Below, one piece after another: positions 49,810-60,059 of a DNA stretch of 64,000 nt (positions are counted from its first letter, which is position 1; every line of letters begins with the position of its first letter). Location of the stretch: assembly GCA_937934745.1 (NCBI GenBank), contig CALGZC010000015.1:61062-125061 (forward strand), given 5' to 3'. This stretch comes from an uncultured Blastocatellia bacterium (GTDB lineage: Bacteria > Acidobacteriota > Blastocatellia > Chloracidobacteriales > Chloracidobacteriaceae). Made by a program: the position numbers and the translations under genes. The notes under the pieces are model-generated. The model had not been told where the DNA came from. It searched no databases and saw only the letters and a list, made by a program, of their open reading frames with translations.

Positions 49810-52284
49810 TTAGAACTCAAGACACACAACCGTTATTTCGACGCTCGGCAGCTTGGCCGGCCGGCCAAAGAGCTGCTGTGCTTGTTCACCGCCCTGGCAC
49901 ACGATGGCACTCGGCAAATTTGTTGCGGGAAGCGCCCAAAAACTGGCTACTAGCTTCTCGTTATGTCGCACCAACTCCTCTGCGTCGGGTGCCAAACCGA
50001 ACAGCTCACCGAGCCAGTCGCTCATCAGCACGAGGTAGCTCCCACTGGCAAGTTGAAAAGTATCGCCGCGAAAACGGAGGCTGGTCGCGCTGTGTAGCGG
50101 TGGGTTGATCACAGCCGGTCGGCTGACCGGATGGCGAATCCCATCCTTTCCCGGCGCTAACACCGCTGGCGGCACATAACCGGCATTGCAATAGGTGAAG
50201 ACACGGTTGTGCACATCGGCAATGCCGTACAGTAGTCGTATCTGCGCATCCAGACTCTGCAAGCGTGGCGATAAGAATTCGCTGAGACGCGCAACGACTT
50301 GCACCGGACAGCTTGGAGAGCGCACTGCCTTGGACTTGAGTGCTGTAAGCGTTGCCGCCATGAGCAAAGAGGCTTCGAGTCCTTCTCCACTGACTTCCCC
50401 GATGGCCAATCCGATGTGGCGCTCGGTAAGGGGTAAGATCGCGAACCACTCCCGTCCTTGCTCCGGCAAATGTGCATACTCGGCCACAACCCGCCACTTT
50501 TCATCCCGGAAGCCGGACGGTGGAAGGAGATTGCTGTGAATCAGCCACCGCACATCCAGGTCTTCCCGCCACCGTTCCCGCCGCAGCCGGTCGCGAACAT
50601 AGGGCGGGGCTAAATCAAACGCTTCAGGGCGTGCCCGAGGCGACCGCCGCTGGCCCCAGACGAACACCATCAGCGGCAGCAGAGCAACACTGCCAACCAG
50701 GAACAGCGGTTCAAAGCCCTGCGGAAAACGCAGCGACCACAGGAGGGGAAAGAGTCCACCGACCAGCGCATAACCGAAAACCACCGCCGTCCAGCCATGG
50801 TTGAACAACGTCCAGAGCAGCCCCCCGAGCAGGAACGTGTAACCAACCAGGGTTGCTCCCGACCCGATGACCAAGGGCAGTCCAACCATCCATGCGCCAA
50901 ACCCGGTCGTCAGCGCTGCGGAAGGGTCTTGGAAACGGTCGCGGGTGAACGCCGCCAGCGGTAACAGGCAAATGGTGACGAACCAGATGTCCACGAAGCA
51001 ACTGCCGATTATCTGCCAGCCTGGCCAATGCCCAACGGCTAGCTCGCGCGACCAGGAGGAAAAGCTATGCCATGGCAGGGTCGGTCGTCCGCACCACCAC
51101 GCAACCACGGTTTCAACGACCAACACCCACAGCGCCCAGGCCAGTCCCCCTCGCCCAAACCGGGCGACCTGACCGGCCGGCAACGATTTCCGGCGGAACA
51201 GGCGATAGACATCGCCTAGGAGCTGTCGCTGCCGTTTCCAATCATAGGACTCGGTCACGGCCAGGGAGATCAAGCCCAGAAGCCAGATACCGAGCGACGC
51301 CAGCCCAGCCGTCGCCAAGAGCAGCAACAGCCAGGATACCCAGTAGGAAGTGTTGGAGAGCCGCAAGAACTCGCTTTCTGTGATCACCGGCTCCCGCCAT
51401 GCCAAAGGCGCTGCGATTGTGAACCCCAGGACCGTACTCAGCCAAACCAGAAAGGGAATCCCAAGGATGCTGGCCACGATGAGTACGGTGAGCGACCCCA
51501 TCAGGCCGCGGAAGATACCCCGCACAAACACCACCGACCATGGAAGCCACAGCACCAATGCGAGGGCGAGGGCGAGAGGTAATCCACCGTTGTCCTTGTC
51601 TTCGAAGGAATCCGGCGGTGACTGCGGTATCAGCCTGAGCGATTGCAGGGCCGTTCCTTCAACAGCCACCTCGACAAAAGGCCAGTATGGATCGGTCGTT
51701 TTCCAGCGGCGAATGATCTCCCGGACATGCCCTGGAAAGGGACTCTCACGGACGGCAGGTGGCAGCTCAACCGTCGGCGGCGGTGCAATGCCAGCTTCTC
51801 TGAGGAGGAACGCCCGCCAGGCTTCGGCCATCGCGCTTGCCGTTGCCGAATTGTGTCGCGGATTGTGTGCCGGTGCGGTCTCTGCTACCGGCGTCCGCCG
51901 ATACACTGCAAAGGCACGAAAGCGCCCCTCTCTCGTCAGCGTCAGCCGGTAGAGATGGCTGGCATCCGGCGCTAGAAAGGCTATTTCCCAGTGCCCCTGA
52001 TCGACGGGGTGCGGGTGGTAGTAGCGGCGAAGCACTTTGTACATTGCCAGGGGTGGGTTGGCAATGTCTGGTGGACGTAACTGCTCGAGAAGCTGCTCTG
52101 CGCGCCCGGCTACATCGGTCAACGGAATCGGCGGTGAATACACACGACCGCTGCACAGCGCCAGAAGAATGCAGGACAGCAAGGGCAACCAGCCTGTCCA
52201 CACCGGATAACGCTTCCAGGCTGCCACCAGGTGCCCTGTTGCTAGCCGCCAACTGCCCTGCTGTATGAGCCGCAGAGCCGTCAT
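49810..52284 (-). CDS. multi-TM membrane protein with degenerate PP2C/SpoIIE-like domain
   Basis: many TM helices; C-terminal GLAIGEVSGEG, YCNAGY, MSDWL and VEITVV align with SpoIIE motifs but with metal ligands altered. Confidence 0.75.
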   Translation of the reverse strand: MTALRLIQQGSWRLATGHLVAAWKRYPVWTGWLPLLSCILLALCSGRVYSPPIPLTDVAGRAEQLLEQLRPPDIANPPLAMYKVLRRYYHPHPVDQGHWEIAFLAPDASHLYRLTLTREGRFRAFAVYRRTPVAETAPAHNPRHNSATASAMAEAWRAFLLREAGIAPPPTVELPPAVRESPFPGHVREIIRRWKTTDPYWPFVEVAVEGTALQSLRLIPQSPPDSFEDKDNGGLPLALALALVLWLPWSVVFVRGIFRGLMGSLTVLIVASILGIPFLVWLSTVLGFTIAAPLAWREPVITESEFLRLSNTSYWVSWLLLLLATAGLASLGIWLLGLISLAVTESYDWKRQRQLLGDVYRLFRRKSLPAGQVARFGRGGLAWALWVLVVETVVAWWCGRPTLPWHSFSSWSRELAVGHWPGWQIIGSCFVDIWFVTICLLPLAAFTRDRFQDPSAALTTGFGAWMVGLPLVIGSGATLVGYTFLLGGLLWTLFNHGWTAVVFGYALVGGLFPLLWSLRFPQGFEPLFLVGSVALLPLMVFVWGQRRSPRARPEAFDLAPPYVRDRLRRERWREDLDVRWLIHSNLLPPSGFRDEKWRVVAEYAHLPEQGREWFAILPLTERHIGLAIGEVSGEGLEASLLMAATLTALKSKAVRSPSCPVQVVARLSEFLSPRLQSLDAQIRLLYGIADVHNRVFTYCNAGYVPPAVLAPGKDGIRHPVSRPAVINPPLHSATSLRFRGDTFQLASGSYLVLMSDWLGELFGLAPDAEELVRHNEKLVASFWALPATNLPSAIVCQGGEQAQQLFGRPAKLPSVEITVVCLEF

Positions 52285-52963: not shown

Positions 52964-53005
52964 TAACGAATACGCCATTATTCCCTGTGCGAGAAACGAT
53001 CCACA

Positions 53006-54187
53006 ATGCCTACTTCCGTTATCCTTTCCGCCGTTCGTCTCCCAATCGGGAAGTTTCAGGGGGCGCTCAAAACCTTTACTGCGCCGAGGTTGGGGGCAAA
53101 GGTCATCCGGGCTGCCGTTGAGCGCGCCGGTTTAGATGCCGTCCAGGTTGATGAGGTCATCATGGGATGCGTGTTGCAAGCCGGGCTGGGGCAAAATCCG
53201 GCACGGCAAGCTGCCCTGGAGGCGGGACTCCCACCCGCCGTAGCCGCGCTTACGGTCAACCAAGTGTGTGGTTCGGGGTTGCGTGCCGTCATGCTCGCGG
53301 CGCAAGCTGTCCAGAGCGGCGATGCTGAGTACGTTGTTGCCGGCGGCATGGAATCCATGACCAATGCACCCTATGTGCTTCCCAAAGCGCGCGACGGCTA
53401 CCGGATGGGCCATGGTGAAATCCTCGATGTGATGCTCCACGATGGGTTGTGGTGTGCGTTTGAGAACTGGCACATGGGCTGTACTGCGGAAGTTGTCGCC
53501 GAGCGCTACAACATTTCCCGGGAGGCGCAGGATGCCTTTGCTGCCGGATCGCAGGCCAAGGCTATTGCCGCGCAACAAGCCGGTGCCTTTCGAGCCGAAA
53601 TCGAGCCGGTCCTCATTCCCCAGCGCAAAGGCGAGCCGGTCACCTTTGCCGAGGATGAAGGTCCACGCGCCGACACCACCATTGCGGCGTTATCCAAGCT
53701 TAAGCCGGCTTTTCAACCCGATGGGACGGTGACGGCCGGCAATGCCTCGACCATCAACGATGGTGCGGCAGCGGTGGTAGTTACCTCCGCGAATCAGGCC
53801 GAACGCCTAGGGCGTCAGCCTCTGGCGCGCATTGTTGCCCAGGCTATGAGCGGGATTGAGCCACGGCTCATCATGATGGCCCCGGTGGAGGCAACACGCC
53901 GCGTCTTAGCCAAAGCTGGCTGGCGAGTTGATGATGTAGATTTGTTTGAGTTCAATGAAGCCTTCGCGGCCCAGGCCATTGCCGTCACCCAAGAAGTCGG
54001 GGCCGATCCGGCCAAAGTCAACGTCAACGGCGGCGCCATTGCCCTTGGTCACCCGATTGGAGCCAGCGGCGCGCGCGTTTTAGTTACCCTGCTGCATGCT
54101 CTGCAGGCGCGGCAGGCAAAGCGTGGTGTCGCTGCGCTTTGCCTCGGCGGCGGTAATGCCGTGGCGTTAGCCATCGAGCGTGACTGA
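53006..54187 (+). CDS. acetyl-CoA C-acetyltransferase (thiolase)
   Basis: [20 protein letters not shown] and CLGGG. Confidence 0.96.
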
Positions 54188-54260
54188 GCGGATGGTGCAT
54201 TGCTTTTCGCGCAGCGTACAAGGGGGCGTACAAGCGTTAGGAGGTCAGTGAGCACAGACC

Positions 54261-54605
54261 ATGCGAGTGAAGTTACTGGAAATTGCCCATGCCCGGTCAG
54301 GCGACAAAGGTGATACGGCAAACATCGGTCTCATTGCACGCCGGCCTGAATTTTATCCCCTTTTGTGCGAACAGGTGACGGCAGAGCGGGTCAGGGCACA
54401 TTTCGCCGACCTCTGCCGGGGCGAAGTAGAACGGTACGAGTTGCCCAATCTGGAAGCACTCAACTTTCTGCTCCACAAAGCACTCGGCGGCGGTGGTACG
54501 GTGTCGTTGCGCAGCGACGCCCAGGGGAAGACCTACAGCACAGCCTTGTTACGGATGGATATTGATGTACCGGATAGCCTGGCCGCACTGGTCACACGGC
54601 TTTGA
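54261..54605 (+). CDS. AtuA C-terminal-domain-like small protein
   Basis: AHARSGDKGD and LGGGGTVSLRSDAQGK. Confidence 0.75.
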   Translation: MRVKLLEIAHARSGDKGDTANIGLIARRPEFYPLLCEQVTAERVRAHFADLCRGEVERYELPNLEALNFLLHKALGGGGTVSLRSDAQGKTYSTALLRMDIDVPDSLAALVTRL

Positions 54606-54705
54606 AAGCTGTTTAGGCAGGGCAGGCGCGCCCGCCTTACAATTCACAATTCAGTGACGGTTATGTTATGGTCTGATCACACTTTACAAGATTCAAACAG
54701 TGTCC

Positions 54706-56208
54706 ATGAGTCGGTTCACCACACTTGAAGCTTTTGTTGTGGGTGTGGAAGACAGCACCACCCTGCTGAAGCTGTACCTGGAGCGGATTCGGCGTGCGCC
54801 ACACCATCCGGCGTACCATCTAGCGGTTTGTGAGCATACCGACGAGCTGCTGACGGCGGTCCGCCAGTTGCGCCGTGCCGCTGACGATGAACTGTCGCCG
54901 GCGCTCTTGGACGGTGTTGACGCGCTACTGGCGTTAGCCGAAGCCTCGGCGGCACTGGCACTGCGTCTGGCCAGCTTTACGCCGGAGCGCCTGGCAATCA
55001 GTTTGGACGGCTTGGCGCAGGCCACGGCGTGCTTTGTGGACATGGTCCGTTCCTTCAGTGGTGAAACTGCGTCCCCGGATATTTCCCTGGCCCGGCACAT
55101 CACCCAGCGGTTGCGCGGGGTGTTATCGGCGGAACAGCCACCGGTGACGACGCCCTCAACCACCCAAAATATACGCCGGATCACCACAGAAGTGACCTTT
55201 GATGGTCACGAAGACCCCTTCGACGACCTCGCCGTTGATACAGACGATGATTTTCTCGACGACGTGATCGGCAGTTTAGAAGGCGCGTTTGATGCTGCCA
55301 TCCACGGTGCCATGCACGGACCGACAGAACGCGGTGTGCCGGATCAGGTGTGGTCGGAAGGCCAGCTTGAAGCCGATCCGCCGCCGGAAGTTCGGCAGTT
55401 GTTTACCGAAATCGCTGCCGGTTACGTGCAGCCGATCAAAGACTTCATTGCCGAACTTCGCAAGGGTGGTTTTGCCCGCGACTGGTTGGAAGCCTGCCGT
55501 CCGGCGGTTGTCAATCTGCGACGTGCATCCGAAACCATGGCGTTTACCGACCTGAGCGGACGCCTTGAGCGATTGGAATCGGCGCTGTTGCAAGATCATA
55601 TCGAGGGCGATCGGCGGCGGTACGGGCGGCACTGGAAGCTGCGTGTCCTCAGCGCCTACGCAGATTTGGAAGACTACCTGCCGGCGACATTCCTGGTTCC
55701 ACCGGCAGCGGCTTCGTCAGAAAGCATCATTGTGACCACCCTGCTCAAGCAGGTGGAAGGGGTCGGACAGCGAACGATTCAGAAACTCTTTGCTGCTGGA
55801 ATGTCGCGCCTGGAAAGCTACACAACGGGACGCCCGGCCGACATCGCCCTGGCATCCGGCATCAAACGTTCCCTGGCCGAACGTATCTGCGACCGTTTCC
55901 ACGCCTATGTGCGCGCGCGTGAAACGACCGACACGGCCCTTCAGGCGCAGTTTCTGACGCTGGTCGAAGAACTCAAGCAACGCCACTTTGAATTCAAGCG
56001 GGCGACGTTGGAAGAGTGGTATCGCCGTACCGACTCGATGGAGAAAAAACGTTGCCGGAAGGCGCGGCAGCAAGTGATGTGGCGCATCAATATCGCCTTG
56101 GTTGAACTCGAGCAGCTGGATGTGCTGCACGAAATTCGGAATGCTGTGTTTGACAAGCGCATTCGTCGGCTTGAAGAGCTGGCGGCGGCGTTTCCAAGAC
56201 CGGTATGA
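54706..56208 (+). CDS. hypothetical protein: helical N-domain, acidic linker, helix-hairpin-helix, coiled-coil C-terminus
   Basis: HhH LKQVEGVGQRTIQKL and ASGIKRSLAERI; ATG 54706 (or 54700). Confidence 0.8.
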   Translation: MSRFTTLEAFVVGVEDSTTLLKLYLERIRRAPHHPAYHLAVCEHTDELLTAVRQLRRAADDELSPALLDGVDALLALAEASAALALRLASFTPERLAISLDGLAQATACFVDMVRSFSGETASPDISLARHITQRLRGVLSAEQPPVTTPSTTQNIRRITTEVTFDGHEDPFDDLAVDTDDDFLDDVIGSLEGAFDAAIHGAMHGPTERGVPDQVWSEGQLEADPPPEVRQLFTEIAAGYVQPIKDFIAELRKGGFARDWLEACRPAVVNLRRASETMAFTDLSGRLERLESALLQDHIEGDRRRYGRHWKLRVLSAYADLEDYLPATFLVPPAAASSESIIVTTLLKQVEGVGQRTIQKLFAAGMSRLESYTTGRPADIALASGIKRSLAERICDRFHAYVRARETTDTALQAQFLTLVEELKQRHFEFKRATLEEWYRRTDSMEKKRCRKARQQVMWRINIALVELEQLDVLHEIRNAVFDKRIRRLEELAAAFPRPV

Positions 56209-56918
56209 GTCTCAGTCGCCACCAAACTATTCTGTTCGTCGGTCAGCACGCCGAAACGGCGCAACTGGTTGAGCAGACCCTAACCGTCGCCGGTTATCAG
56301 GTTTTGGTGGCGCCCACCCCGGAAGCGGCGCAGGCTCTGTGCAATCCGCCCCCAACGCTGGTCATCGTGGACACCACGCCGGGCATCGGCGAGTTAGCTC
56401 CGGCACGGATTGTGCGGGAGCGGCTGGTGACGACGCCGATCATCGTGCTGACACGCCTACCGGATGAGATCCTCTCGCGTGCCATGGAGCGGCTGCGGCT
56501 TTCGTCGCTGGTGAAACCTGTGACGCCATCGCTTTTGCTCGCAACGGTCGCCGATGAGATTGAGTGGGCCCATAACCAGGGGGCGCACAGCCGCATCACT
56601 TCGCCGCTAGAGACGCTGGCCATCAGCGATGACTTGGTCTTTTTTCTCGGAAACCTGCGTTTTGCGCCGCCGCTTAATGTCGTTTACCGCAAGAGCGCCG
56701 AGCTGGAAGCTGCCCTCGCCAAGGCAGAGCTTGATCCGTCTAACCGGACGCTGTTTGATCTGTTTGATGGGCAGCATACGTTGGCCGACATCATTGCCAA
56801 CCTGCCTTACCTTGAACCGAAGATTGTGTTGTTGGCAACTTACCTGGTCGGGATTGGATGGCTTGTTCCGTTGACCGGTGAGCTTGGGCTGCATGGCGTT
56901 TCGGCAGCGAACCGCTAG
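56205..56918 (+). CDS. atypical response regulator (REC plus small winged-helix-like domain)
   Basis: REC fold with VIVD, VLT and VKP but no acidic pair (FVGQH); C-terminal FDGQHTLADII; ATGA overlap with the upstream gene. Confidence 0.75.
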   Translation: MSLSRHQTILFVGQHAETAQLVEQTLTVAGYQVLVAPTPEAAQALCNPPPTLVIVDTTPGIGELAPARIVRERLVTTPIIVLTRLPDEILSRAMERLRLSSLVKPVTPSLLLATVADEIEWAHNQGAHSRITSPLETLAISDDLVFFLGNLRFAPPLNVVYRKSAELEAALAKAELDPSNRTLFDLFDGQHTLADIIANLPYLEPKIVLLATYLVGIGWLVPLTGELGLHGVSAANR

Positions 56919-56942
56919 CCATAGTGCGCAGAGAGGGCCGCC

Positions 56943-57194
56943 ATGGTTGTCGATGTGATTATGTGGGCGAAGGAAGTGGAGCTGCGCGGACTCCCGCGTG
57001 CCCTAGAGGTTGAGTATGAAGGCCGCGGAGCGTTCTGGGTAACGCGCGGCCTGCGGATGACACGCAGCCTGTTTGAGCTACTGGAGATCGAACATCCTGA
57101 GCTGACGTTTCGCAAGTACGTTGTTCCCTCTCCGCCTTCGGTCGCGGCTTCAAGTTCAACGCCAAGCAATACTGAAGGAGCTGCCCTGGTATGA
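56943..57194 (+). CDS. small hypothetical protein (83 aa)
   Basis: GAGAGGG upstream; stop overlaps the next ATG; natural composition. Confidence 0.65.
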   Translation: MVVDVIMWAKEVELRGLPRALEVEYEGRGAFWVTRGLRMTRSLFELLEIEHPELTFRKYVVPSPPSVAASSSTPSNTEGAALV

Positions 57195-57505
57195 CATCAC
57201 CGCGGGTCGAAGCGCTGCACAAGATGCTTGCCGCCAACCCCGGCAATGCCATGGCGCACTATGGGCTGGCCAATGAGTACTGGAAACTGGCCGATTATGC
57301 AGCCGTCGTCAAACACCTGACTGCCTACCTGGAGGCCAGCGACGACCAGGGCGCAGGCTACCGTCTGTTGGGACAGGCATATCAGCGTTTGGGCGACATC
57401 GAAGCCGCCCGTGCAGCCTGGCGACAGGGACAACACGCTGCCGAACGGCACGGACATCCCACGATGGCCGCCGAAATCGGCGAACTGATCAGCACTCTGG
57501 AGTAG
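57191..57505 (+). CDS. small TPR protein
   Basis: P.N.MAHYGLANEY and GYRLLGQAY TPR pattern. Confidence 0.85.
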   Translation: MTSPRVEALHKMLAANPGNAMAHYGLANEYWKLADYAAVVKHLTAYLEASDDQGAGYRLLGQAYQRLGDIEAARAAWRQGQHAAERHGHPTMAAEIGELISTLE

Positions 57506-57508
57506 ACC

Positions 57509-58213
57509 ATGGCCGAGCAACGTGAACAAGCGCCCCCGTTGTCGGTACGGTTCATGCACCGCCGCTGGAGGTGGTTTCTTCTGGCGGGCTTGATAGCGGG
57601 TGCTGCCGCCGGAGGCTATCTGTGGTTCCAGCGCGCCGGCAGCAGCGCCAGGCAGGCCGAGGCGACACTGCGGGTCATTGCGGCTACTGATGGTCTGCCG
57701 CTGGATGGGCGATTGGCCGATCTACCGGGGTCGAGGCAAGCCGTTGTATCGCGGAGCGGGCGTCACAGTGATGAAACCCGGCGCCAACTGAGGGCCACGC
57801 GCCAGAATCTCGAGCAGCAACTCTTGCGCGGGGCGTCGCCGGATGGCCACCGCACTTTGGGTCGTTTTTATCTAGCCGAAGCACGTCCGCTGGCAGCGTT
57901 TGCGCATTTGCAACTGGCGTTACAGCAGTTCCCACGTGATGCGCGCCTGCACAGTGACTGTGGGTTGGCGCTTCTTGAGCTGGCTCGCCAGACGCCGGAG
58001 GCAGCGGCAGAAGCTTTAGAAGCATTTGAGGAGGCACTGCGTCTTCAACCCGACCTATTGGAGGCACGCTACAACCGCGCGCGGGCGCTGGAGCTGTTGG
58101 AACGTCACGCCGAGGCGCTTGATGCCTGGCGCGATTACGCCGCCCGTGATGCGCAATCGGCTTGGGGAGCCGCTGCGCGCGACCGGATTGCCTTTCTGGA
58201 GCGCTACCGGTGA
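57509..58213 (+). CDS. membrane-anchored TPR protein
   Basis: N-terminal TM (WFLLAGLIAGAAAGGYLWF); TPR repeats (LEARYNRARALELL). Confidence 0.8.
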   Translation: MAEQREQAPPLSVRFMHRRWRWFLLAGLIAGAAAGGYLWFQRAGSSARQAEATLRVIAATDGLPLDGRLADLPGSRQAVVSRSGRHSDETRRQLRATRQNLEQQLLRGASPDGHRTLGRFYLAEARPLAAFAHLQLALQQFPRDARLHSDCGLALLELARQTPEAAAEALEAFEEALRLQPDLLEARYNRARALELLERHAEALDAWRDYAARDAQSAWGAAARDRIAFLERYR

Positions 58214-58315
58214 TGCGTACGGGTGGGCTGTCGCCGCGCACAAACATGGCGCGCAGCGTAGCCCGCCTGTTCGACCGGCAGCATCGGCCACAACCAGGCT
58301 GGTGCGCAGGACACT

Positions 58316-59170
58316 CTAACGAATGCTGGCTGCGACCCGAAAACCAACAGACTCAAGCTTGAGTTCCGGGTCAAGCTTATACCGCACGGCCGACCGGCAG
58401 GCGGCACTGTTGGCAAAGTACGATCCGCCCCGGATCACGCGCCATAAGCCGTTGGTCGGACCGGTTGGATCCTCGGCCGGACTCTTCTTATAGTAAAAAT
58501 CGTCGTACCAGTCCTGGCACCACTCACGGACGTTGCCCTGCATATCGTGCAAGCCAAAGGCATTCGGAGTCTTCTTTCCGACCGGGTGTGTTTTTCCGCC
58601 GGCATTGTCAAAGTACCAGGTCGTGGCGTCTAGGTCGCCGTAGTACTTGCCGGTCGTGCCGGCGCGGCAGGCATATTCCCATTCGGCTTCCGTCGGCAGC
58701 CGATAAAACAGGGCATCGCCTGCGTCATTCAGGCGCTGGATGAAGTCCTGCACATCCTTCCAGGAAATGCTGTCCACCGGTAGATCATCGCCGACGAATT
58801 TGCTGGGGTTAGTACCCATGATTTGCTTCCACTGGGCTTGTGTGACCTCGTACTTACCGAGATAAAACGGTCGGCTGATGGTGACGCGGTGTGGTGGTTG
58901 CTCATCCGGTTCACCACCGGCTTCGCCCATGGTGAACTCTCCGGCCGGAATCAGGACAAGTTCAATCCCGGCTACACCGGCCATGGTTTTGGGTAGGTTA
59001 TTGGGATCAAGGAGCGGTACATTTTTGTTGGCGCGTGAGACCCCACTCGGCACACCACCGGGATTGGTCGTATCACGGTCGCAACCGATCCCGGCAAACC
59101 AGCAGATGAACAGTGCACACCAACTCACCAAAACCCGTTTTCGACACTTCATCACCGCTAATCCCTTCAT
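58316..59170 (-). CDS. FGE/SUMF1-fold lipoprotein
   Basis: lipobox AGIGC; IPAGEFTMG, YEVTQAQW, RLPTEAEWEYACRAG, NVREWCQD and GFRV; ATG 59170 with AAGGA. Confidence 0.9.
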   Translation of the reverse strand: MKGLAVMKCRKRVLVSWCALFICWFAGIGCDRDTTNPGGVPSGVSRANKNVPLLDPNNLPKTMAGVAGIELVLIPAGEFTMGEAGGEPDEQPPHRVTISRPFYLGKYEVTQAQWKQIMGTNPSKFVGDDLPVDSISWKDVQDFIQRLNDAGDALFYRLPTEAEWEYACRAGTTGKYYGDLDATTWYFDNAGGKTHPVGKKTPNAFGLHDMQGNVREWCQDWYDDFYYKKSPAEDPTGPTNGLWRVIRGGSYFANSAACRSAVRYKLDPELKLESVGFRVAASIR

Positions 59171-59480
59171 TTTGATTTTCCTTTGATGCGTCCAATCCTG
59201 GCCCACACCGCTGCTGACCACCGACCTCACCCGTTCTGTGGAACGCGAGACCAGCCCAGACATGAAGGCCGTGACTGTGAAGAAAGGTAATGAAAGCCAA
59301 GTGATCTTAACGCAATGTTAACCGCATGGCCCCTGCGCGGAAGTTCGTCTGGCCGTAAACAACATCCGTCGTGAAGTAGGTGGTGTCGGTCTGGAACAAA
59401 CCAAGTCTGTTTGCAAGCAACGGCGCCTTCGGCATACAAATGTGTAGAAATCCCCGACCCGCACCTGAGGAAGAGTGCCC

Positions 59481-60059
59481 ATGGCTCTGACGCCATCTTC
59501 AATGCCGGCGCTGGGAACGCCAGCCCCGGACTTCACGCTGCCGGATGTGACGACCAGGAAGCAGGTTTCACTGGCAACCTTTGCCGAGCATCCCGTGCTG
59601 TTGGTGATGTTCATTTGCCGGCACTGTCCGTACGTCAAGCACGTCCAGGTCGAGTTGGCGCGGTTGGCCAACGAATACGTCGCCAAGGGCGTTGGCGTCG
59701 TCGCGATTAGCTCGAACGATGCCGCGACGTACCCCGACGATGCGCCGGATTCGCTCCGCGACATGGCGCGCGAGCTGGGCTTTCGGTTTCCTTACCTTTA
59801 CGACGAAACCCAGGCGGTGGCCAAAGCTTTCCAAGCCGCCTGCACGCCGGATTTCTTTGTCTATGACCGCGCGCGGACGCTTGTCTATCGCGGACAGATG
59901 GATGACAGCCGCCCCGGCAATGGACGCCCCGTCACTGGCGATGACCTGCGCCGGGCGCTCGATGCCGCGCTGGCCGGCGAGCCGCCACTGCCTAACCAGA
60001 AGCCGAGTGTCGGCTGCAACATCAAGTGGCGACCGGGTAACGAACCCGCCTATGCCTGA
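59481..60059 (+). CDS. thioredoxin-like AhpC/TSA-family protein
   Basis: APDFTLPD, FICRHCPYV, AACTPDFF, YRGQMDD and GCNIKW. Confidence 0.9.
   Translation: MALTPSSMPALGTPAPDFTLPDVTTRKQVSLATFAEHPVLLVMFICRHCPYVKHVQVELARLANEYVAKGVGVVAISSNDAATYPDDAPDSLRDMARELGFRFPYLYDETQAVAKAFQAACTPDFFVYDRARTLVYRGQMDDSRPGNGRPVTGDDLRRALDAALAGEPPLPNQKPSVGCNIKWRPGNEPAYA

Follow-up and report, generated by a model that had tools for sequence, protein, structure and literature searches.

What might a five-gene operon do when none of its products is recognizable as an enzyme? The question is raised by the genes here called G1–G5, on the forward strand of a 64,000-nucleotide stretch of DNA from an uncultured Blastocatellia bacterium of the Chloracidobacteriaceae (contig CALGZC010000015.1, positions 61,062 to 125,061; assembly GCA_937934745.1). 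This stretch as a whole is referred to as the window. A first-pass annotation, made by a model from the letters of the sequence, had read the genes as a translationally coupled operon with no enzyme or known pathway behind it, and had proposed a dedicated, possibly phosphorylation-independent module for signalling or localisation. The lack of any such match holds up: searches of Pfam, NCBIfam and PADLOC tied none of the products to an enzyme, to an established pathway or to a defence system, and a defence role was rejected on the PADLOC result, which held no noteworthy match. We find that G1 belongs, as a remodelled paralog, to a widespread family without a name, whose other members are encoded beside pentapeptide-repeat and bactofilin genes. 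On this footing we tentatively favour a reading in which the locus is a non-enzymatic, probably phosphorylation-independent scaffold or adaptor module centred on G1. The component domains are of known kinds; the sources searched contain no description of the operon, of its domain combination or of the parent family.

A shared C-terminal module links G1 to a widespread family

The alignment of 22 G1 orthologs on which much of this work draws (A1, 32–88% identity) was used as a profile against 1.84 billion representative proteins, with matches clustered at 50% identity. It drew in 816 clusters at E≤1e-3, 392 of which reach E≤1e-30. Except for a few orthologs, these matches span profile positions ~190–503 alone. 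What the wide family shares is a module of ~300 residues made up of an acidic amphipathic helix, a four-helix bundle of the histidine phosphotransfer (Hpt) type that lacks the histidine, a tandem helix-hairpin-helix domain, (HhH)2, and a coiled coil. The module is 28–35% identical between these proteins and G1, with profile E-values down to 1e-97, and few further relatives came from a word-indexed search with the module alignment. HHH_5 apart, the family is covered by no Pfam or NCBIfam model. Its names on record are all ‘hypothetical protein’, from an Acidobacteriota metagenome-assembled genome (MAG), an unclassified ‘bacterium’ and metagenomes; examples are MEW6729974.1 (Acidobacteriota MAG) and MCP3978785.1. 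The C-terminal half of G1 had been said to resemble uncharacterised myxobacterial HhH proteins. Many uncharacterised HhH proteins do resemble it, and the qualifier ‘myxobacterial’ was neither confirmed nor refuted.

In G1 the conserved module starts with a predicted acidic amphipathic helix (DFLDDVIGSLEGAFDAA), and an ‘LLDD(V/I)xxxLDxxFD’ element is also found here in members of the wide family. The bundle that follows is related to the P1 domain of CheA. In a PDB profile search with the wider-family profile (A4) it matches CheA P1 structures over 77 residues (1tqg, E 3.3e-4; 2ld6, E 4.9e-4), a match that is weaker with A1 alone (E 0.65), and among the CheA P1/Hpt structures (1tqg, 2ld6, 1i5n) it aligns to P1 residues 9–85. 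The phosphorylated histidine of CheA, His45 in Thermotoga maritima, falls on Val269 of G1 (nt 55510–55512), and the column varies across the family, with V, T, K, Q, E, A and R. G1 further differs from CheA in having neither the P2–P5 domains nor a kinase. A His-less Hpt-like bundle had been expected in G1, and there is one, but it is the second bundle, with valine at the critical position, and not the N-terminal one.

Next to this bundle lies an (HhH)2 domain resembling the N-terminal domains of RadA and Rad51, which bind DNA irrespective of its sequence. Archaeal RadA and eukaryotic Rad51 are the best match to it in both sequence and fold: the PDB profile search finds RadA 2bke at E 1.4e-7 with the wider profile and at E 2.4e-5 with A1, and the RadA matches from Foldseek are 28–32% identical over 62–72 aligned columns. 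Pfam and NCBIfam detect only this part of G1, through an HHH_5 match to residues 346–397 (E 6e-5, below gathering) that is also seen in 15 of 16 family members. The G-V-G of the first hairpin is conserved, with V353 and G354 invariant in A1. Where RadA and Rad51 continue into a RecA ATPase core, G1 has a coiled coil instead, modelled by AlphaFold2 (AF2) as three helices (409–440, 445–467 and 471–495) with a predicted local distance difference test (pLDDT) score of 84–95, and with K447, R451, R454, Q455 and W459 invariant in A1. The AF2 model, the RadA profile match and HHH_5 agree with the second helical bundle, tandem HhH and coiled coil that the first-pass annotation had placed here.

The gene neighbourhood of the wide family is strict. 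We examined 21 wide-family loci, five by exact look-up and sixteen from a metagenome scan with a tighter alignment (A8). A gene for a pentapeptide-repeat protein of ~424 residues comes next after the module gene in 21/21, and a bactofilin gene comes third wherever the contig continues far enough (loci L022–L042; for example L023 8001–11347, L024 6001–8720 and L041 5001–7610). The bactofilin of the triad has no obvious N-terminal membrane-targeting motif. A bactofilin-like beta-helix was considered for the C-terminal domain of the pentapeptide-repeat partner and set aside, Pfam Bactofilin giving E 0.037 and 0.36 and BLASTP nothing. A literature search for bactofilin together with pentapeptide repeat found only an unrelated mention, and a published survey of bactofilin gene clusters deals with M23 peptidases, not with this triad (PMC10945521). 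The triad thus seems to be undescribed in the literature searched.

G1 departs from these relatives on either side of the common module. About half of the wide family opens with an aromatic-basic motif resembling ‘MGFF(D/S)RLFGKKK’, followed by a disordered, low-complexity linker of 17% Ala and 17% Pro, and a few members carry an N-terminal zinc ribbon instead. G1 has no such amphipathic motif or Ala/Pro linker, but a folded five-helix N terminus and an EDPFD motif. Downstream, receiver, small-protein and tetratricopeptide repeat (TPR) genes follow G1 in place of the pentapeptide-repeat and bactofilin genes. One and the same MAG holds a bactofilin-linked member (L023) and an ortholog of G1 (L013), which marks G1 as a separate paralogous lineage.

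Conservation of the gene cluster

How firmly do the five genes hold together? Surveying one genome for each species, we obtained 16 loci that carry a G1 ortholog, and all of them look like Blastocatellia. The closest relatives of G1 are Chloracidobacterium proteins (75–88% identity), which assigns the window to that genus, and among its ~35 ortholog clusters each named source is an Acidobacteriota or Chloracidobacterium record. Some of the MAGs bear other labels: Blastocatellia-type contigs with G1 and its upstream neighbour, G0, occur in MAGs labelled Actinomycetota or Clostridia (L008, L009, L012, L015, L017, L019). These labels are probably binning or labelling errors, and the contig name in one such MAG contains ‘Acidobacteria’.

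Four gene orders emerge when the loci are compared by tblastn with the window proteins. In Chloracidobacterium the order is thiolase–G0–G1–G2–G3–G4–G5. A lineage at 51% G1 identity has thiolase–G0–G1–G2–G3–G4, another at 43% has G0–G1–G2–G3–G4 with a G2 of 544 residues, and lineages at 33–37% keep G0 and G1 alone or G1 and G4 alone. G5 is restricted to the genus Chloracidobacterium (L006 and L007 only), while G2 and G3 co-occur and are seen in three lineages only. G4 is the commonest neighbour of G1 after G0, and follows G1 directly where G2 and G3 are missing. G1 is the sole universal gene among the loci examined, and the cluster is a G1-centred core with optional partners. Conserved gene order had been named as a check on the operon; the G1-centred core is kept, the five-gene unit only within the genus, and G1–G4 in two further Blastocatellia lineages. 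In the lineage with G1 and G4 alone, a conserved acidic protein of 168–177 residues with a PEPEPE-type repeat replaces G0 before G1 (L003 7456–7989, L021 7463–7969).

G0 is a conserved upstream neighbour of G1 that the first-pass annotation had passed over. It lies between a thiolase gene (53006–54187) and G1, and its identity across Blastocatellia is 69–85%, also in lineages with G1 down at 33%. No gene for a DUF1446/AtuA N-terminal partner is found near it, and G0 is probably a separate metabolic gene. Its constancy bears on the most serious rival to our reading, in which there is no single system at all: adjacency would reflect shared descent, G1 would work with G0 in lipid or terpenoid catabolism or else alone, and G2–G5 would be passengers. 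G0–G1 is indeed the most frequent pairing, with G0 directly upstream in 11 of the 16 species-level loci and sometimes only 12 nt between the two, and thiolase, acyl-CoA dehydrogenase and enoyl-CoA hydratase genes flank the loci. Yet in the window 100 nt of AT-rich sequence with promoter-like sites lie between the two genes, and the relatives of G1 in the wide family are never adjacent to AtuA-type genes in the loci examined. The genus-specific G5, the absence of G2 and G3 from most lineages, and the origin of all orthologs in one class, which limits the weight of synteny, also suit this alternative. Against it, G1–G5 are joined by start/stop overlaps and gaps of 3–24 nt, in none of the loci examined is G2, G3 or G4 found apart from G1, and G4 directly follows G1 even without G0, G2 and G3. 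The persistence of this last adjacency argues for a functional link between G1 and G4, and on balance we consider this rival unlikely.

The N-terminal bundle of G1 and the receiver of G2

The second rival is an orphan phosphorelay, in which His44, on helix 2 of a highly divergent N-terminal Hpt domain of G1, would donate phosphate to Asp56 of G2, thereby switching the C-terminal domain of G2, with the kinase encoded elsewhere. The N-terminal bundle is specific to the G1 subfamily, and AF2 places its helices at residues 2–30, 35–59, 65–90, 93–118 and 126–141. V12, E15, D16, T19–L21, Y24, R27, P32, H44 and E47 are invariant in A1, so that His44 (nt 54835–54837) and Glu47 persist in 22 orthologs down to 32% identity, and with five helices the bundle has the length of CheA P1. 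His44 is, however, without the H-x-x-K-G context, and the bundle has no sequence relation to P1 of T. maritima CheA (hhalign probability 1.2%) or to the Hpt-like middle bundle of G1 (0.3%). In the PDB profile search it matches designed coiled coils and talin only. A Foldseek search of the PDB with the whole G1 model does place CheA P1 domains at the top, with target template-modelling (TM) scores of 0.63–0.77 and about 140 aligned columns, but the E-values (0.06–1.5) are not significant and the output is silent on which bundle was aligned. As an Hpt domain the N-terminal bundle is therefore ruled out by sequence and open at the level of fold. The first-pass annotation had made it an Hpt-like bundle with aspartate in the place of the histidine, which fails on the hhalign result and on the invariant His44.

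G2 brings the other half of the putative relay. Its residues 8–123 form a receiver with Asp56 at nt 56370–56372. Pfam Response_reg scores 21.1 (E 3.6e-4; gathering 30.2) and reaches 33.2 in the L004 homolog, and Foldseek with the AF2 model gives ~200 receiver matches at E≤1e-3 (best ~1e-5; target TM 0.70–0.78). In an hhalign comparison with CheY, D56, T83 and K104 of G2 correspond to D57, T87 and K109, and the Mg-binding D12/D13 of CheY correspond to G13/Q14: the acidic pair is missing. The homologs have G or S and then Q, S or A in these columns and never restore the pair; an Asp one or two residues later in some of them leaves a small doubt about its loss. G2 is in this respect the atypical receiver that the first-pass annotation had taken it for. 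The retention of Asp56, Thr83 and Lys104 in all homologs speaks for phosphotransfer. It is set against the loss of both Mg-binding Asp residues, the absence of a kinase gene from the operon and from the neighbouring genes, and a receiver gene that is often not adjacent to G1. Taken together with the N-terminal bundle, these points make a working relay improbable.

NblR, HP1043/HsrA and FrzS are atypical response regulators that work independently of phosphorylation, and G2 resembles them in having a degenerate active site on a receiver fold; NblR is also among its weak NCBIfam matches. In distinction to these proteins, only the acidic pair is lost in G2, with Asp, Thr and Lys retained, and the output domain of G2 matches no known effector family. 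That domain (residues 142–222) is winged-helix-like in the AF2 model, with the order helix-strand-helix-helix-strand and an invariant LFDG motif. The earlier label of winged helix-turn-helix is borne out as far as predicted secondary structure goes, and not in its implication of DNA binding. Trans_reg_C, GerE, HTH and other DNA-binding families give no match at E≤10, the closest families being the PKMT winged helix (E 0.14) and, in one member, HxlR (E 0.039). The third helix (EPKIVLLATYLVGIGW) is hydrophobic. A peptide-binding winged helix of the RRE/PqqD kind was tried and is no more than a lead, the sole PDB match, to PqqD, standing at a non-significant E 1.1. The weakest rival, a transcriptional unit of a receiver–winged-helix transcription factor (G2) and an HhH DNA-binding co-regulator (G1), can appeal to the helix pattern after the receiver, to one source that labels a G2 homolog ‘response regulator transcription factor’ and to the (HhH)2 domain, but is improbable given the missing family match, a putative recognition helix without basic residues, a nearest structural hint that is a peptide-binding fold, and HhH domains that bind DNA irrespective of sequence. 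The transcription-factor label on G2 homologs is unsupported and should be corrected.

The 544-residue homolog of G2 (L004/L005, 9919–11553, and L012) is longer by ~100 residues at the N terminus and by ~230 at the C terminus. Its extensions matched no Pfam family, and a DUF4388/PATAN assignment for the N-terminal one was abandoned for want of Pfam support.

The acidic linker of G1 and the smaller partners

Between its two bundles G1 has a disordered acidic linker (residues 142–226) with 20 Asp or Glu and 3 Lys or Arg. The acidic stretch EDPFDDLAVDTDDDFLDD that the first-pass annotation had pointed out is present at residues 169–186, and within it the D170-P-F-D173 columns are invariant in A1. 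Among 142 wide-family proteins a DPF-like motif was seen in just 7, and EDPFD is essentially limited to the G1 subfamily.

G3 consists of a conserved core (residues 3–63) and a variable Pro/Ser-rich tail. It is 56–71% identical to its homologs (MAFFT alignment A6, from the five G2-bearing loci with an extracted gene) and has no Pfam, NCBIfam or PDB match. G4 is hit by several TPR models of Pfam just under the cut-off, and matches the structural-genomics protein 2kat over its full length (E 6.6e-12), besides 3ma5 and 2kcl. All three are small stand-alone TPR proteins with no function on record. G5 passes the TPR_11 gathering cut-off (28.0 against 26.8) and has about 20 residues before a probable transmembrane helix (residues 22–40, nt 57572–57628; Kyte-Doolittle maximum 1.56 at residue 22), after which the TPR domain follows. 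TPR proteins had been proposed for both genes, with a membrane-type G5, in keeping with these matches. An anti-sigma factor was rejected as a reading of G5: the NCBIfam match (20.6 bits against a cut-off of 100, E 3.7e-4) covers the transmembrane region only, and the ~20 residues before the helix leave G5 without an N-terminal sigma-binding domain.

A model for the G1-centred module

We return to the scaffold or adaptor reading, which we favour for two reasons: each recognizable piece of the locus is a binding or assembly module, and the relatives of G1 are obligatorily linked to a cytoskeletal polymer. In the model that we propose, G1 would oligomerise through its coiled coil, and its (HhH)2 domain would grip DNA or a partner that resembles it. 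Proteins translated together with G1 may be bound at three places, namely the degenerate Hpt bundle, the N-terminal bundle and the EDPFD motif. G2, as a pseudo-receiver, would sit on the Hpt-like bundle in the manner of Hpt–receiver complexes, with no phosphotransfer, and the TPR groove of G4 could bind the acidic EDPFD peptide. G3 would be an accessory subunit, and G5 an added membrane anchor in Chloracidobacterium. Such an assembly might place a nucleoid or cytoskeletal structure relative to the envelope.

The earlier suggestion of a phosphorylation-independent module agrees with the His-less bundle and the degenerate receiver. Its signalling part fares less well, as paralogy to the bactofilin-linked family makes scaffolding at the cytoskeleton or nucleoid a likelier role than signalling.

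Known systems offer partial likenesses. AHP6 is a pseudo-Hpt protein of Arabidopsis which, like G1, keeps the Hpt fold, has lost the phospho-histidine and acts by binding. AHP6, though, consists of one domain and inhibits a eukaryotic phosphorelay competitively, whereas the bundle of G1 sits in a coiled-coil scaffold of DNA-binding type. For the wide family the nearest functional analogy is the BacNOP–PadC–ParB/ParA system of Myxococcus xanthus, in which a bactofilin scaffold recruits DNA-binding machinery via an adaptor encoded beside the bactofilin genes (PMC5703909). PadC itself is ParB-like and unrelated to G1 by homology, and it lacks both a pentapeptide-repeat partner and an Hpt-like domain.

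Several points weigh against our reading. The partners are absent beside G1 in a number of lineages (L001/L020, L013, L016 and L017), and would there be dispensable or encoded elsewhere. With D56, T83 and K104 of G2 invariant among homologs down to 36% identity, phosphorylation could still matter. Neither a bactofilin nor a pentapeptide-repeat gene lies in the 64-kb window, and the triad order is missing from the window and from all 16 loci with a G1 ortholog; the link of G1 to the cytoskeleton is therefore by homology only. The AF2 model of G1 (pLDDT 76.5, predicted TM score 0.40) gives no inter-domain geometry at that score. The charge distribution of G5 leaves its membrane orientation ambiguous, and a periplasmic TPR domain would rule out direct binding to G1–G4. 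Gene structure, domain identities, the loss of the phospho-histidine and of the acidic pair, family membership and synteny are what the analysis establishes; contacts among the G1–G5 products, DNA binding and the cellular role are inferred.

What would follow if the scaffold reading is right? The operon is lineage-restricted, and whatever its products may do, it led to a strictly syntenic, bactofilin-linked family. That unnamed family of >800 clusters would gain its first functional handle, since a pentapeptide-repeat protein and a bactofilin invariably accompany it. A new and testable bactofilin client or anchor system would stand beside the peptidoglycan-enzyme and ParAB/PadC clients. An Hpt domain and a receiver would have been recycled jointly as phosphate-free docking modules, where to our knowledge usually one half of such a pair alone is seen to be degenerate. 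A bolder extension, which we regard as doubtful, would make the 300-residue module a new class of cytoskeleton adaptor that joins a bactofilin/pentapeptide-repeat polymer to membrane and DNA. The Blastocatellia operon would then be a rewired, phosphate-free ‘pseudo-two-component’ offshoot for localisation, its degenerate Hpt bundle paired with the degenerate G2 and the TPR adaptors for binding only.

Gene layout and surroundings

The five open reading frames on the + strand lie exactly where the first-pass annotation had placed them (Table 1), and direct reading gives the same ATGA start/stop overlaps (56205–56208 for G1/G2, 57191–57194 for G3/G4) and gaps (24 nt for G2/G3, 3 nt for G4/G5), which bear out a translationally coupled operon. 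For G1, the N termini of homologs favour the ATG at 54706 over the GTG at 54700. G3, G4 and G5 each follow a purine-rich ribosome-binding motif, which is Shine-Dalgarno-like GAAGGAG for G4 and GGAG for G5. The AT-rich promoter region proposed earlier is also there. The 100-nt spacer between G0 and G1 has a GC content of 47%, falling to 38% in its final 60 nt against 60.8% for the whole window, and contains two sigma-70-like hexamer pairs (54614–54643 and 54643–54672), which are consensus matches only; the scanned region held 3 such pairs where 1.2 were expected.

Table 1. Positions in the window of G0–G5, the leader and the parts of G1
Feature	Position	Strand	Size or residues	Description
G0	54261–54605	+	114 aa	Stand-alone AtuA ferredoxin-like protein; PF23544, E 1.4e-33
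AT-rich leader upstream of G1	54606–54705	+		Two sigma-70-like promoter candidates
G1	54706–56208	+	500 aa	Open reading frame; multidomain, scaffold-type protein
N-terminal five-helix bundle	54706–55128	+	G1 residues 1–141	Specific to the G1 subfamily; A1 and AF2
EDPFDDL motif	55210–55230	+	G1 residues 169–175	Inside the acidic linker; pLDDT <50
Acidic amphipathic helix	55249–55308	+	G1 residues 182–201	AF2, low confidence
His-less Hpt (CheA P1-like) four-helix bundle	55384–55677	+	G1 residues 227–324	
(HhH)2 domain	55717–55917	+	G1 residues 338–404	RadA/Rad51 N-terminal type
Antiparallel coiled-coil hairpin	55930–56190	+	G1 residues 409–495	
G2	56205–56918	+	237 aa	Open reading frame; atypical receiver and winged-helix-like domain
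G3	56943–57194	+	83 aa	Open reading frame; small conserved protein without known fold
G4	57191–57505	+	104 aa	Open reading frame; small soluble TPR protein
G5	57509–58213	+	234 aa	Open reading frame; TPR protein with one probable transmembrane helix

The one public sequencing run with the locus that is flagged as possibly RNA (X5) was discarded as transcript evidence: from 53000 to 59500 its depth is an even 2–4 over the genes of both strands and the intergenic DNA, so that it behaves like a DNA library and is uninformative on expression. The flanking genes, which encode a membrane protein with a SpoIIE-type phosphatase domain, a thiolase, an FGE-sulfatase-domain protein, a redoxin, a riboflavin synthase and an M16 peptidase, give no functional hint for G1–G5. 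No terminator-like hairpin was found between G5 and the FGE-sulfatase-domain gene. That gene (58316–59263, − strand) is convergent with the end of G5 and encodes a SUMF1-like domain behind a hydrophobic, lipoprotein-like N-terminal leader. On the other side, a gene at 49810–52284 (− strand), divergent from the thiolase–G0 genes, encodes a polytopic membrane protein of 824 residues with a C-terminal SpoIIE/PP2C phosphatase domain.

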